A stretch of 64,000 bases of DNA from Mobula hypostoma. Lineage: Eukaryota. The stretch spans positions 45,386,001 to 45,450,000 of the forward strand of contig NC_086097.1 of NCBI RefSeq assembly GCF_963921235.1. Direction: 5' to 3'. How positions within the stretch are numbered: the first letter of the stretch is position 1; each line of letters begins with the position of its first letter. Below the pieces are notes generated by a model. That model was not told the origin of the DNA. It ran no database searches and saw only the letters and a program-made list of their open reading frames with translations. This document shows, in pieces, positions 6,970 to 55,092 of the stretch. The translations under genes were made by a program, and so were the position numbers.

Positions 6970-8700
6970 ACTATTTATTTAGCAATGCAGCGTGCAGTAG
7001 GACCTTCCGGCTCTTCGAGCCATGCTGCCCCAGCAACCCTACAACCCCAATTAACCCCTCCCAATCACCGGACAATTCATAATGACCAATTAATCACTCC
7101 CAATCACTGGACAATTCATAATGACCAATTAACCCCACCCAATCATCGGACAATTCATAACGACCAATCCTCCCAATCATCGGACAGTTCATAATGACCA
7201 ATTAACCCCACCCAATCATCGGACAGTTCATAATGTCCAATTAACCCCACCCAATCATCGGACAATTCATAATGACCAATTAACCCCACCCAATCATCGG
7301 ACAATTCATAACAACCAATGCTCCCAATCATCGGACAGTTCATAATGACCAATTAACCCCACCCAATCATCGGACAATTCATAATGACCAATTAACCCCA
7401 CCCAATCATCGGACAATTCATAACGACCAATCCTCCCAATCATCGGACAGTTCATAATGACCAATTAACCCCACCCAATAATCGGACAGTTCATAATGTC
7501 CAATTAACCCCTCCCAATCACCGAACAATTCATAATGACCAATTAACCCCACCCAATCATCGGACAATTCATAATGACCAATTAACCCCACCCAATCATC
7601 GGACAATTTATAACGACCAATCCTTCCAATCATCGGACAGTTCATAATGACCAATTAACCCCACCCAATCATCGGACAGTTCATAATGTCCAATTAACCC
7701 CTCCTAATCATCAGCAGTTCATAATGTCCAATTAACCCCACCCAATCATTGGACAATTCATAATGACCAATTAACCCACTTAATCATCGGATAGTTCATA
7801 ATGACCAATTAACCCCTCCCAATCATCGGACAGTTCATAATGGCCAATTAACCCCACCCAATCATCGGACAATTCATAATGACCAATTAACCCCAACCAA
7901 TCATCGGACAATTCATAACGACCAATCCTCCCAATCATCGGACAGTTCATAATGACCAATTAACCCCACCCAATCATCGGACAATTCATAACGACCAATC
8001 CTCCCAATCATCGGACAGTTCATAATGACCAATTAACCCCACCCAATCATTGGACAATTCATAATGACCAATTAACCCCACCCAATCATCGGACGATTCA
8101 TAACGACCAATCCTCCCAATCATTGGACAGTTCATAATGACCAATTAACCCCACCCAATCATCGGATAGTTCATAATGACCAATTAACCCCACTTAATCA
8201 TCGGATAGTTCATAATGACCAATTAACCCCACCCAATCATCGGACAATTCATAATGACCAATTAACCCCACCCAATCATTGGACAGTTCATAATGACCAA
8301 TTAACCCCACCCAATCATCGGATAGTTCATAATGACCAATTAACCCCTCCCAATCATCGGACAGTTCATAATGTCCAATTAACCCCTCCTAATCATCAGA
8401 CAATTCATAATGTCCAATTAACCCCACCCAATCATTGGACAATTCATAATGACCAATTAACCCCACCCAATCATCGGATAGTTCATAATAACCAATTAAC
8501 CCCTCCCAATCATCGGACAGTTCATAATGGCCAATTAACCTACCCGTGCATCTTTGGACTGTGGGAGGAAACTGGAGCAGTTGGGGAAAAGCCGAAGATG
8601 TATAGAGACTCCTTATAGAATAATGCAGGAAATGAACTCGGAACTCCGGAACGGCCCGAGCTGCTGTAGTGTCGTGCTAAGCCCCTACGCCACTGTGGCT
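6970..8700 (-). mobile_element. tRNA-derived V-SINE-like element (HE1-like) with an internal minisatellite expansion
   Basis: Head with A/B-box-like motifs at ~8625-8700; TCTTTGGACTGTGGGAGGAAAC V-domain-like motif at ~8550; CR1-like tail at ~6970-7040; homologous to the copies at 28250 and 31240. Confidence 0.65.
7045..8540. repeat. Minisatellite of 39-bp units (CAATCATCGGACAATTCATAATGACCAATTAACCCCACC) mixed with 34-bp variants, roughly 40 units
   Basis: Direct tandem repetition with no unique spacers. Confidence 0.97.
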
Positions 8701-22228: not shown

Positions 22229-22608
22229 TTATTGCTGAACCAAGAACCAGTGTCAGTGAGTCATGGGATGCTGTGTGAAAGGAAATATGGGTACTTTCTT
22301 CCGAACATTTCTAGTTAAGAAAGTAATTGCATTATCAGACCTTGATGGTTGACTTAGCTATTCTGTAGTTATGTACAGTGATTGCTATGCTTCTGAAGGA
22401 ACAACAGATGAACGTAATTCTGATCTACAAAGATAAGAGATTTGATCTCTGGACAGTGTGTCTATCTCAGCTGGTGATGATCCCTCAGTACCCCTGGGCC
22501 TAGAATGGGGAGCACGAACCATTTGTAAAAGCCTGGTTTGTCCAGATCCTAGCTGTGAGTAGAGACCTCTGCTGGTAGGTGAACGTATATGGACACAGCA
22601 TCAACTTC

Positions 22609-22755
22609 GCAAACAACAGGAATTCTGCAGATGCTGGAAATTCAAGCAACCCACATAAAAGTTGCTGGTGAAGGGTCTCGGCCTGAAACGTCGACTGCAC
22701 CTCTTCCTAGAGATGCTGCCTGGCCTGCTGCGTTCACCAGCAACTTCTATGTGTG
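22609..22755. mobile_element. 147-bp fold-back mini-PLE with a partial hammerhead
   Basis: Inverted PLE termini joined at GGTGAAGGG; TSD ACAGCATCAACTTC at 22595-22608 and 22756-22769. Confidence 0.88.
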
Positions 22756-23433
22756 ACAGCATCAACTTCTATTGGATAGCTTACATGGGATTACCAAGGA
22801 ATTATGATTACTCGTCTGCTTTTCAGCTACCATGACCAACAGCCAACAAGAAGGGTATGAAGAAAAAAGATTCCTGGCAATTTCCAGTCCAAGAAAAAGT
22901 TATCAGAATACAACCTGTCTTAGTAGTGGTGACCGTAAATACTAGTGGATTGTTATTTAACCCTATCTAAGGTTCACTGATGTATTTCAGAAAAAAAAGT
23001 TTGCTGTCCAGACAAGGATTTGTCTGCACGCGACTCCAGACACACCCCATGTGGTTGAGTCTTAAGCTTTTAAATCTGCCCTAAATATGCTTTATATGTG
23101 GATGAATGAAACTGGTTGGACCACATGGAATTAACCTGAGCACTAATTCAAACACCACAAAGTCAGAGGGTAAATTGAGCTACTGGTCACAGAATGATGG
23201 GAACATCCTGCTGGTCTCTGAGTCATAAGCACCTGCTGATAGGGTGATAGGGTCAGGTATGAAGTGTTGGACATGAAGAGGCCCCTCATTGAGTGATAAT
23301 CACAGACCTTAACTAGAGGTGATTTCAAGCCGTGGACTCCAGAGCATCCGATCTGGTAATAATAAAATGGGAAAATTGAAACAAAGGGTTAACATTCAAT
23401 CATAAAGTAGCAGCTGATACAGCTACTGTTTTT

Positions 23434-51060: not shown

Positions 51061-53435
51061 TCTGGCCTATATTTTATGTTATATTTGACTACCCTTGTCA
51101 ACCACGGTTGCGTATTCCTCCTTTTAAGATACTCTTCTTCTTTTCTGTGCCTTCCAACCTGTCCCCAGGAACTCCAGCCATTGCTGTTCTGTCATCATCC
51201 CTGCTAGTGTTCCATTCCAATCACATTTGGCCAGTTCATCACAAATACCTCTGTAATTCCCTTTACTCCACTGTAATTCTGATACATCTGACTTTCGCTT
51301 CTCCCTCTCAAACTGCAGGGTGAATTTGAACGTATTTATCATCACTGTCTCCTGAGGGCTCCTTTATCTTAAGCTCCCTGACCAAATCTGGTTCATTACA
51401 CAACACCTCATTCATAATTGCATTTTCCCTAGTGGGCTGAACCAGAAGCTGCTTTAAAAAGTCATCTCATAGGCATTCTACAAACTCCCTCTGTTGAGAT
51501 CCAGCACCAACCCAATTTTCTCAATCTACCTGCATATTGAAATCCCCCATGACTATTGTAACATTGTCCTTTTTTTAATGCCTTTTCTATCTTCCATTGT
51601 AATTTGTACCCCACGTCCTTGCTACTGTTTAGAGAATGGATATAACTCCCTTCAGAGTCTTTTTACCCTTGCAGTTCCTTAACTCTACCCACAAGGATTC
51701 TACATCTTCCGATCATACATCACCTCTTTCCAAGGATTTGAATTCATTTTTTTTTTACCAACAGAGCCACCCCACCCCCTCTGTCTACCCTCATGTCCTT
51801 TCAATACAATGAGTATCCTGGGACACTAACCTCACGACTTTGATCTCCTTTCAGCCACATCTCCTACAATGTCAAAACTGCCAATCTCTAAATGCACCAT
51901 TCCGTATACTGCATGCATTCAAATATAACGCTTTCAGTCCTGTTTTTATTACCATTTTTGATTTTACCATGTTACACTTCAACTCATCCCACTGATTATA
52001 ATTTTGCCCTATCATCTGCCTGTCCTCCCTCACAGTCTCACTATACACTGTATCTACTTGTATACCAACTGCCCCTTCCTCAGCCCTATCACTCCAGTTC
52101 CCATCACCCTGCCAACTTAGTTTAAACCCTTCTCTAAAGCTCTAGCAAACCTGTTTGCAACCCTCGAGTTCAGGTGTAACCCATCTTTTTTGTGGAGGCC
52201 ATACCTTCCCCTGAACAGATCCCAGTGATCCAGAAATAAGAAACCCTGCCCATTGTACTTATTCCTCAGCCATGCACTCATCTGCCAAATCATCCTATTA
52301 TTACCCTCACTGACTTGTGGCACATGTAGTAATCCAGAGATTACTATCCTTGAGGTTCCTGTTTTTCAGCTTTCTACCTATTCACTAATATTCTCTCTTC
52401 AGTACTTCATCCCTTTTCCTACCTGTCTCATTGGTACCAATATGTACCATGACTTCTGGCTGTTCCCCCTCACCCTGGTGCTAGAATATAGTTTGAAATG
52501 GAGCTGATTAAACCTTTCTCTATGAAGGGCAAAATGTTCTCAGTGCCGGCTTTATCACTATATCCCTTTGAGTCGGTCATTTTCTAGTAAAATGTTCATT
52601 AATAAAAGCAAACGATACAGATCAAGGCACATTTTCTGAAATGGTTCCAAAGAGAACATCATATATTCAGTGAGTAAAGAGCATTAATGCAAATTGTCAA
52701 ATATCTTCAGAACAATGTGCTCAACATTACAAATGAAAGATGCTGATTTAAATGGTAATTCAAGCTGTGATCTAACACAGACTGTAATTAAACGATTCTG
52801 ACATTAATTTTTCATGCATAAAATGGATTGTATAATCCGCACAGATGAAGGAGATGTATCTTTGGCATTTGTGTAGATTAAATAACAATGACTGGATAGC
52901 TTTGGGAGTACTATAATGTGACATTAGCCACATCAGCCAGTAGGTTGCACTCTTAGAGTGTAATAAAATCATGTAGCAGGGAAATAGTCCAATCAGCCTA
53001 ACTTGTCCATGCTGTCCAGTGGGTACCTTTCTGTATTCATCCCTCCTGCCAGCACTGAGTCCATAGCCTTCAATGCCCAAGAGGTTCAGGAGTACATCTG
53101 GGCCCTTCTTAAATGTTGGGGGTGGGAGGGAACGTCGACTCAGACCATGAGAGGCCTGCGTCGGGCATTTTCATGCCTTACAAGGCGCAGGTTGGAAGTC
53201 TGTGCTGTGCGTGACCCAGCATCAACCATTTACTCCTGTCCCAATAAGAAAGTCACCTCATTTTCCTCTTACAGCCGAGTCAGGAAATTATGGCGATAAG
53301 ACCCATTCAAGAAACAGATGCAGAATCTATACTGCTGCTCCTAGCACCTCTAAAGAAGTACTGCACTACTGGGCTCATTGTCTTTTGAATATGATGTTGA
53401 ACAGAAGTAGTGTCTCCTTTCAAATACAATTAACG

Positions 53436-53472
53436 TGGAGATGCTGGGGATTGAACACAGGACCTCATACAT
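53436..53472 (-). pseudogene. tRNA-Ala 3'-half retrocopy
   Basis: ATGTATGAGGTCCTGTGTTCAATCCCCAGCATCTCCA matches vertebrate tRNA-Ala ATGTATGAGGTCCCGGGTTCGATCCCCGGCATCTCCA at 33/37; three mismatches are CpG transitions. Confidence 0.75.
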
Positions 53473-53514
53473 TTCCTTGTGTTTGCGTCTCCTTTCAAAG
53501 GTGATTTAATAGAT

Positions 53515-53866
53515 CACTGGTCCCCATCCTCTGGGCTGCAGACCAATACATTGCTGCGAAGAATGCAGTGGTGCAGCGGTAGTTGGAATGCACACAGCAA
53601 ATCTTTAAGAAAAAAAGCAGAAATAAACAAGCTGATTAATTAGGTGCCGCCCAGCACATAAATGTCGGCCCAGATCAGAGGCGATGCAATCAGCAATCGC
53701 CTCTGATCTGGGCCAACATTTACGTGCCGGGTGGCACCTAATTAATTAGCCTGTTTATTTCGGCTTTTTTCTTAAAGATGTGCTAGGTGCGTTCTGGCTT
53801 ACCACTGCACCACTGCATGCTTCGCGAATCGGTATCAGTCTGCGGCCCGGAGGTTGGGGACCACTG
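53515..53866. mobile_element. Palindromic hAT (Charlie-like) MITE, 352 bp
   Basis: TIR CA(C/G)TGGTCCCCA; inverted along its whole length; 8-bp TSD TAATAGAT at 53507-53514 and 53867-53874. Confidence 0.92.
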
Positions 53867-54064
53867 TAATAGATCTTTTGGTATTATTTCAAAGAGGAGG
53901 CCAGTTCTTTCTGAAGTCTTAGGTTATATTTAACCCTAAACGAATATTGTTAAAAAAGAGCATCTGGACATTGTGACATTACTGTATTTGGAAGATTTCT
54001 TTGCACATGTTGACTCTTTTGCTTCCTAAGCTAAAACGGTAAATATTCTGCAAAAAAATCTTCC

Positions 54065-55092
54065 ATGCTGTATGACTCCATGAGATTGCTGGTGCCTTGA
54101 CCAATACCTTTGTGTCCTCTATAGCCACGAGTGAGGCCCAAGCGGGGACTAGCGAGTAGCCAAAGCTATTCTTTTGGTCAGGAAAGGAAATAAGGATAAT
54201 CATGGAAACTATAGACCAGCCAGTCTCAAATCAGTGGTAGGGAAGCTATTGGGGAGGTTTCTTAGGCATAGGATTTATGAGCAGCTGGAAAACCATGGCC
54301 TAATTAGGAATAGTCCACATGACTTTGTGCAGGGCATGTCATATCTTACTAACCTGATTGAGTTTTTTCCAGGGAGGTGACAATGGTGATGAATGCAGAG
54401 TTGTGGATGTTGTCCACATTAATTTTAGTAAGGCGTTTGACAACGTCCCTCAAGGGAGGCTCATCCAGAACATTCAGTTGTGTGGGATATATGGTAAATT
54501 CGCCACCTGGATTCAGAATTGGCCTGCTCATAGAAGACAGAAGAGAGTGGTTGATGGGACCTATTCCAGCTCGAGGTCTGTGACTGGGACCTTCGCTGTT
54601 TGTGATAAATATAAATGATCTGGATGAAAACAAATGCGTAACACACACAAAATTCTGGAGGAACTCAGCAGGCCAGGCAGCATCTATGGAAAAGAGTAAA
54701 CGGTTGACGTATTGGGCTGAGACCTTTCATCGGGAAGTGTTCTTCAGATGAATCATCAGATACTGCCTGATCTGCTGTGTTCCTCCAGCATTTTGTGTGT
54801 ATTAATTTGATTTCCAGCATCTGCAGATGGTTAATAAGTTTGCAAACAACGCAAAGATCGATGATGTAATAGAAGGATAGAGTGGGATATAGATCAATGG
54901 CAGATAAGGGTGGAGAAATGGCAGGTGGAGCTTAACCCATCCAAATATGAAGCACTACACTTTTGGAGAACAAATGTAAAGGGACAGTACATTTTTAATG
55001 GCAAGATCCTCAACAGTGTTGATTTGCAGAGGGATCTTGGGTTGAAGTCCATAGCTCCCAACACAGATTGATAGGATGGTAAAGACAGCACA
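54065..55092 (+). mobile_element. Decayed CR1 RT fragment containing an older fold-back mini-PLE (~54640-54828)
   Basis: GNYRPASLKSVVGK, FSKAFDNVP; insert has inverted PLE termini and a degenerate hammerhead. Confidence 0.82.

Follow-up and report, generated by a model that had tools for sequence, protein, structure and literature searches.

A tRNA-Ala half and the tail of a Neptune-type Penelope-like element joined within a single target-site duplication

Human tRNA/LINE-1 chimeras, described together with 5S/LINE-1 insertions, are one known system in which a retroelement end is fused to part of a tRNA: the available text of PMC13174262 counts 21 tRNA cases, reports a target-site duplication (TSD) of 9-19 bp in eight of the eight that were checked and proposes twin priming as their origin. 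The insertion that we study here shares with these chimeras a single TSD-bounded event, an antisense tRNA of half length and a break in the anticodon loop (PMC13174262). It differs in its partner, which is a 16-nt tail of a Penelope-like element (PLE) rather than an L1 3' end with poly(A), and in the part of the tRNA that it holds: the L1 chimeras mostly carry tRNA positions 1-37, whereas ours carries 37-73 and a 3' extension (PMC13174262). The words 'trailer', 'precursor' and 'pre-tRNA' are absent from the main text of that paper, and its Table S3 could hold such cases. Our insert thus works like a tRNA/LINE-1 chimera and is not an L1 product, as it has a PLE terminus and no poly(A).

The second system is the PLEs themselves. 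Inverted pLTR insertions of EN+ PLEs, as described in the available text of PMC8557442, have the same layout of two outward-ending arms with a tail at one end and a TSD. EN+ PLEs also have two RT start sites and extend both strands, and the PLE protein purified from the anole, which nicks both strands and elongates both, initiates at two sites in the tail that have no homology with the target (PMC11167929, in the text available). What sets our insertion apart is its second arm, which is a host RNA; host small-RNA templates are not described in the available text of either source (PMC8557442, PMC11167929). Host sequence inside PLE ends, a TSD and proposed template jumps are all features of the in-trans mobilisation by Penelope elements of Adineta vaga (PMC3846280). 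There, however, the cargo consists of long intron-containing genes framed by whole pLTRs, in pLTR-framed units, and the available text of the paper does not use the word 'tRNA' (PMC3846280), whereas the fusions seen here involve short Pol III transcripts and lie at truncation points. We found no report of a PLE/tRNA chimera in a literature search whose coverage excluded subscription journals and Repbase entries. An earlier sequence-only reading of this DNA knew of no description of in-trans capture in this form; our search agrees for the PLE/tRNA pairing, and the general kind, fusion of an antisense half-tRNA to a retroelement by twin priming, is known for L1 (PMC13174262, in part).

One insertion from two templates

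The window, by which we mean the whole 64,000-nt stretch of DNA that was analysed, contains the 13-bp sequence GTCTCCTTTCAAA twice in identical form on the plus strand, at 53412-53424 (left copy) and 53487-53499 (right copy); the computed chance of such a 13-bp repeat within 100 bp is about 2e-6. Between the copies lie 62 nt made of three pieces. The first, at 53425..53435 on the minus strand, is an 11-nt piece 3' of the tRNA discriminator base that is not CCA and is either a putative pre-tRNA trailer or partly filler. The second, at 53436..53472 on the minus strand, is the 3' part of a tRNA-Ala (antisense, positions 73 to 37), which begins directly after the anticodon and is identical to tRNA-Ala genes at 34 of 37 positions. 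The third, at 53471..53486 on the plus strand, is the terminal 16 nt of a Neptune-type PLE in sense orientation (the tail, where the RT starts), recognised by genome-wide terminus matches. Its first 2 nt (AT) are common to the tRNA piece. Read along the minus strand, the order is therefore the 16-nt PLE end, tRNA-Ala 37-73, 11 more bases and TTT from the repeat. The tail follows the ORF strand whereas the tRNA reads along the opposite one, so that the RNA part is antisense to the element, as in twin priming. There is no poly(A), and no inner TSD separates the PLE and tRNA pieces; a single TSD encloses both. This is one TSD-bounded event that drew on two templates on opposite strands. The direct repeat, the antisense tRNA half starting just after the anticodon and the AT overlap had all been recognised by the sequence-only reading, and its interpretation of the whole as a PLE layout of two arms, the second of them replaced by a tRNA, gains support.

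We compare four public runs over window positions 52900-54100. Run X9 has almost no cover at the site, and run X1, which may be the source sample, is not independent. In organism E (run X11, about 7% diverged), one contig matches the window up to 53424, continues for 7 letters and resumes at 53867. A palindromic MITE of high copy number, with inverted repeats at its termini and a TSD of 8 bp (53507-53514 and 53867-53874), occupies 53515-53866 of the window; it lies 7 bases from the chimeric insertion and is also missing in organism E. Seven is the number of window bases between the right repeat copy and the TSD of this MITE, an agreement by count only, and it is the number expected if the insert, one repeat copy and the MITE are all absent. 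The contig thus has a single repeat copy without the insert, and the 62-nt piece is an insertion; an empty site in a relative is the kind of evidence to which the sequence-only reading had pointed. Organism B (run X5), on the other hand, is contiguous across 53168-53570 with no gap and so carries the insert. Separately, an 89-bp piece of a high-copy repeat at 53114-53202 is missing in the organism E contig.

The element family that supplies the tail

The window holds its own reference case of a PLE insertion, an ordinary two-armed fold-back copy of a sister subfamily at 22595..22769 (no strand assigned) with a 14-bp TSD. The resemblance of the 16-nt piece to the PLE terminus at 22609, noticed from the sequence alone, is correct as to a PLE terminus, but the best match is the sister subfamily end GCAAACACRAGGAAAT and not the copy at 22609. 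This word has 8,049 matches in the genome and its reversed control has none; about 15 of 100 tail copies among the matches listed share the CpG transition of the window's tail. In 30 of 30 loci examined the tail word is the start of an element, with PLE sequence on one side and unrelated flanks on the other. At 13 of these loci we find a TSD of at least 10 bp within 1.5 kb, and 7 of the 13 terminate in a tailless inverted arm, which begins about 40 nt further in. This agrees with the PLE layout of inverted arms, a 30-40-nt tail at one end and a TSD. Among 28 short-tail matches, in which other sequence follows the tail, three (L049, L056 and L058) are minimal insertions, with 9-13 nt of tail alone between TSDs of 12-16 bp, so very short arms such as ours do occur.

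Over about 560 nt, a long arm of the tail family (L021) shares 86-90% identity with the 3' part of copies that contain ORFs, and these linked ORFs match Pfam RVT_1 at E-values of 1.3e-5 and 4e-4, both below the gathering score. Inspecting translations by eye (L077, L081), we see a C-x4-C-x2-C motif between RT and nuclease; a CX2-5CxxC linker is absent from Penelope/Poseidon (PMC8557442, in the text available). The nuclease region shows, again by eye, an IY...YIGET motif, a CxxC and, further on, two His in the manner of GIY-YIG, with no Pfam match and no relevant PDB match. The core motif of a hammerhead ribozyme is likewise visible by eye only; it has no Rfam match and is not given by the MFE fold. 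Judged by the RT matches, the linker and the GIY-YIG-like motif, the family fits the Neptune type as defined in PMC8557442 (available text).

Several neighbouring observations concern the same family. The partner in L020, a candidate for host capture, turned out to come from inside the RT frame of the PLE itself, in the same orientation. In L046 (G000:C1:140523138), an intact tail and about 330 nt resembling a much older PLE relic lie inside an 11-bp repeat. Several PLEs (L189, L190 and others) sit in a common SINE at the same motif just after the B box, which may reflect a target preference or an effect of the search pattern. Elsewhere in the window, at about 6980-8460, there is a tandem array of mixed 39- and 34-bp units. 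The repeats of this DNA resemble those of a ray-like cartilaginous fish.

With the abundance of the tail established, one can ask whether the locus combines two separate events, a SINE fragment, or a 16-nt end that resembles a PLE by chance. About 2.5 chance matches per genome are expected for the window's tail variant, and five A-variant matches without a TSD do look like chance. Against this stand the single TSD that encloses both pieces with none inside, the empty allele that lacks both, the uniqueness of the tRNA-plus-trailer pattern and a chance of about 4e-9 of finding 14 tail-only bases at the exact place. We consider this explanation already contradicted and next to impossible.

The tRNA-Ala half and the insertions that resemble it

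Used as a genome query, the 62-nt insert matches itself and six tRNA-Ala genes. These genes (TGC/CGC; L002-L007, called by ARAGORN) differ from the tRNA part at three positions, two of them CpG transitions and one G>T. A tRNA-derived SINE can be set aside, since the T-arm-plus-trailer pattern has a single genome match with 3 mismatches allowed, there is no A box and no SINE family contains the 62-mer; the insert is neither a SINE nor a diverged PLE arm, the two readings on which the first interpretation would have failed. The T-arm of the tRNA resembles the PLE tail at 13 of 19 positions, a likeness reached by 21 of 500 shuffles, hence we make no use of it.

The weak point is the 11-nt piece. 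We inspected 37 tRNA-Ala-like sites in the genome, the window copy included, and none of the other 36 carries it; the 3' extension matches no gene trailer as far as a T-run. The source tRNA-Ala gene with this trailer that the sequence-only reading supposed is therefore not among them, and this counts against the precursor interpretation of the window copy. A genome search for the T-arm plus trailer with 3 mismatches allowed returns the window copy only, the best two matches to the 11 nt (7/11 and 6/11) are both at chance level by a rough estimate, and we find no local template for it above chance. The 11 bases may derive from the trailer of a gene that is diverged or missing from the assembly, or they may be filler. 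Because no gene with this trailer was found, we only infer a pre-tRNA origin for the window copy, and the idea that an oligo(U) end paired with AAA is drawn from sister insertions whose trailers do match genes.

The same facts bear on a different template, namely a tRNA already processed at its 3' end but lacking CCA, or else a 3' tRNA half, in which case the 11 nt would be untemplated or scrambled filler and no oligo(U)/AAA pairing would be involved. Such a template fits the missing trailer gene, the filler seen in two sister insertions (L113, L135) and the break in the anticodon loop, which also occurs in half-tRNAs fused to L1 (PMC13174262, in part); it would alter only the tRNA-priming and 37/38-joining steps of our preferred account. 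But the piece starts with CG, as do the trailers of four array genes (L002, L003, L004, L102), and ends at TTT, and L002 likewise has an 11-nt trailer before its T-run. Moreover, trailers differ among paralogous tRNA genes and the tRNA-Ala arrays may be incompletely assembled. We judge a processed template very unlikely.

Two kinds of tRNA-Ala relic came up among these sites. L101 (G000:C78:29055791) is the decayed 3' half of a tRNA-Ala with a T-run behind it; its 301 bases contain no 5' half, TSD or PLE arm. L087, L104, L105 and L107 are old tRNA-Ala-like heads directly before a common SINE, possibly a dimeric SINE family.

Similar chimeras, on whose existence the sequence-only reading also depended, do turn up in targeted scans: besides the window insert we find four PLE/tRNA insertions (Ala, Asn, two tandem Leu and an intron-containing Tyr) and one probable 5S insertion. 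The five tRNA cases, window insert included, and the probable 5S are lower bounds from narrow patterns, since B-box scans miss tRNAs without GGTTCRANNCC, decayed copies, long arms and other PLE subfamilies.

The tRNA-Ala case, L113, brings to 2 of 37 the tRNA-Ala-like sites that are fused to a PLE arm. It is a two-armed PLE with a 13-bp TSD that holds a tRNA-Ala from position 24 to +50, 95% identical to a source gene on another contig; the copy runs 50 nt beyond the tRNA end, stops at no terminator and is accompanied by filler. L135 has the layout of the window insert, with an arm, a sense tRNA-Asn and a trailer, here with about 8 nt of filler beside the TSD (8 bp exact, 11 with one mismatch); its trailer matches genes as far as the T-run and ends there. 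In L157, two head-to-tail tRNA-Leu units, each running from -5 to the second T4 tract, lie between two arms with a 12-bp TSD (one mismatch), and the source genes are single, not tandem. L182 joins a tRNA-Tyr, with its 14-nt intron and trailer, to a tail arm; it has no TSD and a target deletion of about 5 nt, and its trailer matches the gene but ends 3 nt past the T-run. The probable case, L208, is a full-length 5S with an exact first base between two arms, in a fetched stretch that ends before any TSD; a further 39-nt piece without an assigned source adjoins the 5S. Finally, L176 (G000:C18:124594874) is a stand-alone pre-tRNA-Leu retrocopy with a leader, a 13-nt trailer and a 14-bp TSD; it has neither poly(A) nor a PLE arm and starts at -5/-4 as L157 does. 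The tRNA-Leu chimera (L175 and L157, G000:C62:56482300-56484750) has an inverted partial duplicate, 92% identical, about 1.3 kb away, and its flank is presumably Tc1-like.

These cases emerged from scans of differing depth. The B-box scan gave 5 matches (control 1), of which the window copy is the sole tRNA; a 12-nt tail-like word with a SINE and a 9-bp repeat (L041) was also seen. The arm-plus-B-box scan gave 84 matches: 25 were dropped by eye as mutated PLE-internal words, one was already known and 58 were fetched. Rfam finds a tRNA in 3 of the 58, the source of L135 and L157, and the rest looked like neighbouring SINEs or chance. We did not count L126/L181 (tRNA-Leu TAG), whose flank is gene-like and which shows no TSD over 851 nt. 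A reverse-side scan gave 63 matches, judged from 80-letter listings. Of the 9 loci then fetched, L183-L186 resemble native tRNA genes that have a PLE on their downstream side (L185 carries a TSD of its own, of 10 bp, and the other three no clear one), and L189 and L190 are PLEs inserted into SINEs. Four further scans (13, 10, 15 and 8 matches), also judged from listings, added only L182, from the tail-anchored scan with 13 matches. Scans for 5S gave 0 and 2 matches with one true 5S, and those for U6 gave 1 and 1. The U6 candidate L207 (G000:C45:10914335-10914451) is not a chimera: it is a true U6 retrocopy of full length that sits inside a PLE copy, ends in nine A and has a 10-bp TSD of its own.

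Several of the sister insertions likely begin or end at Pol III transcript boundaries. Among the five events with a source gene, two end exactly at a T-run (L135, L157) and one at 3 nt past it (L182), while L113 and L176 end at no T-run. This signal is modest, because T-runs cover 7-14% of downstream positions and only two of the five ends are exact, and read-through transcripts are needed for L113 and L157, which pass the first T4. Retention of the intron in L182 does not by itself prove an RNA template. What speaks for RNA templates is that two events start alike at -5/-4, that some ends fall on T-runs, that the 5S copy begins at its exact first base and that L157 holds a tandem pair.

The same comparison tells against a patch of DNA, by which repair synthesis after the 16-nt tail would have copied an open tRNA gene and rejoined through TTT/AAA microhomology. 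The -5/-4 start common to two independent events (L157, L176) follows a transcript boundary, as do the T-run ends of L135 and L157 and the first base of the 5S in L208, and the head-to-tail pair of L157 is absent from the source loci. Yet L113, which passes the tRNA end by 50 nt without a terminator, fits a patch equally well, misincorporation of the modification type is not evident at A58, and PLEs are known to carry intron-containing and non-coding host sequence (PMC3846280, available text). On balance a DNA patch seems improbable.

A possible route to the insertion and its meaning

We think it probable that the insertion arose in one step from two templates, with a Neptune-type PLE extending both target ends and a nascent Pol III RNA serving as second template or as jump acceptor. 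The target would be nicked on both strands 13 nt apart, presumably by the PLE endonuclease. One 3' end would be extended on PLE RNA from the start site in the tail, for 16 nt only. The other 3' end, the AAA at the 3' end of the left TSD, which normally starts the inverted second PLE arm, would here act as primer for the tRNA arm and be extended on a tRNA-Ala transcript without CCA, most likely a precursor that paired with AAA through its oligo(U) terminus. The tRNA cDNA would end at 37/38 and join the tail cDNA through the common AT. That end may be due to a block by methyl-inosine at 37, to a cut in the anticodon loop or simply to microhomology; in zebrafish, A37 of Ala-TGC/CGC is m1I and disturbs RT, with errors rather than stops reported at 37 (PMC11417395, in the text available). 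The product would be a single-copy by-product of transposition.

The sisters suggest that the same machinery may also jump from PLE RNA to the 3' end of pre-tRNAs, and once to two in series. The RTs of R2 and of group II introns are known for end-to-end template jumping. L157 and L182 resemble such jumps, made to the 3' end of a U-ended RNA that is then copied to or near its 5' end, as do the known U6/L1 chimeras (PMC13174262, in part), but the enzyme class is another and the window case is oppositely oriented. Besides the missing trailer gene, the modest T-run signal and the read-through that L113 and L157 require, several facts count against our preferred account: L176 is a TSD-flanked pre-tRNA copy without a PLE arm, L182 has no TSD, filler adjoins the TSD in L135, and in L208 the fetched stretch stops short of any TSD and 39 nt beside the 5S have no assigned source.

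The PLE RT is the putative copier of the tRNA, and sequence cannot tell RTs apart. Two enzymes could have shared the work, with the PLE making the cut and the tail arm while another RT in this genome, of LINE type, used the tRNA to extend the second end. Chimeras of an antisense half-tRNA, with TSDs of 9-19 bp, are made by L1 (PMC13174262, in part), LINE-type RT frames can be seen by eye in the flanks, and the genome holds both a TSD-flanked pre-tRNA copy that lacks any PLE arm (L176) and a polyadenylated U6 retrocopy with its own TSD (L207). However, in L157, L182 and L113 the tRNA cDNA runs on directly on the PLE-arm strand, the PLE protein alone extends both strands in vitro (PMC11167929, available text), and the window insert lacks poly(A). 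We regard a second enzyme as unlikely and retain the one-step account by the PLE.

A broader proposal is that vertebrate Neptune-type PLEs regularly take as second templates nascent Pol III transcripts that still bear leader, intron and oligo-U trailer, through priming at the second end as well as through serial end-to-end jumps. We advance this only tentatively, as a possibility that has somewhat less than even standing with us.

We see no sign of function in the 62-bp insert, a dead by-product, and its interest lies in what it may say about PLEs. The inverted arms of these elements were proposed in 2013 to arise by self-priming on antisense RNA (PMC3846280), and both strands are extended in vitro (PMC11167929), each according to the text available. 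A second arm of foreign RNA that was primed directly at the target agrees with the two ends having been primed independently; self-priming would hardly yield one. If the PLE RT jumps to U-ended pre-tRNAs, small-RNA capture in the style of L1 extends to the telomerase-related retroelements. And if Pol III templates are indeed used regularly, PLEs would give rise, so far unrecognised, to pre-tRNA and 5S retrocopies that lack a tail and are flanked by TSDs, as L176 is, and might seed SINE-like chimeras that depend on PLEs; their insertions would also record germline Pol III starts, read-through ends and the modification stop at 37.
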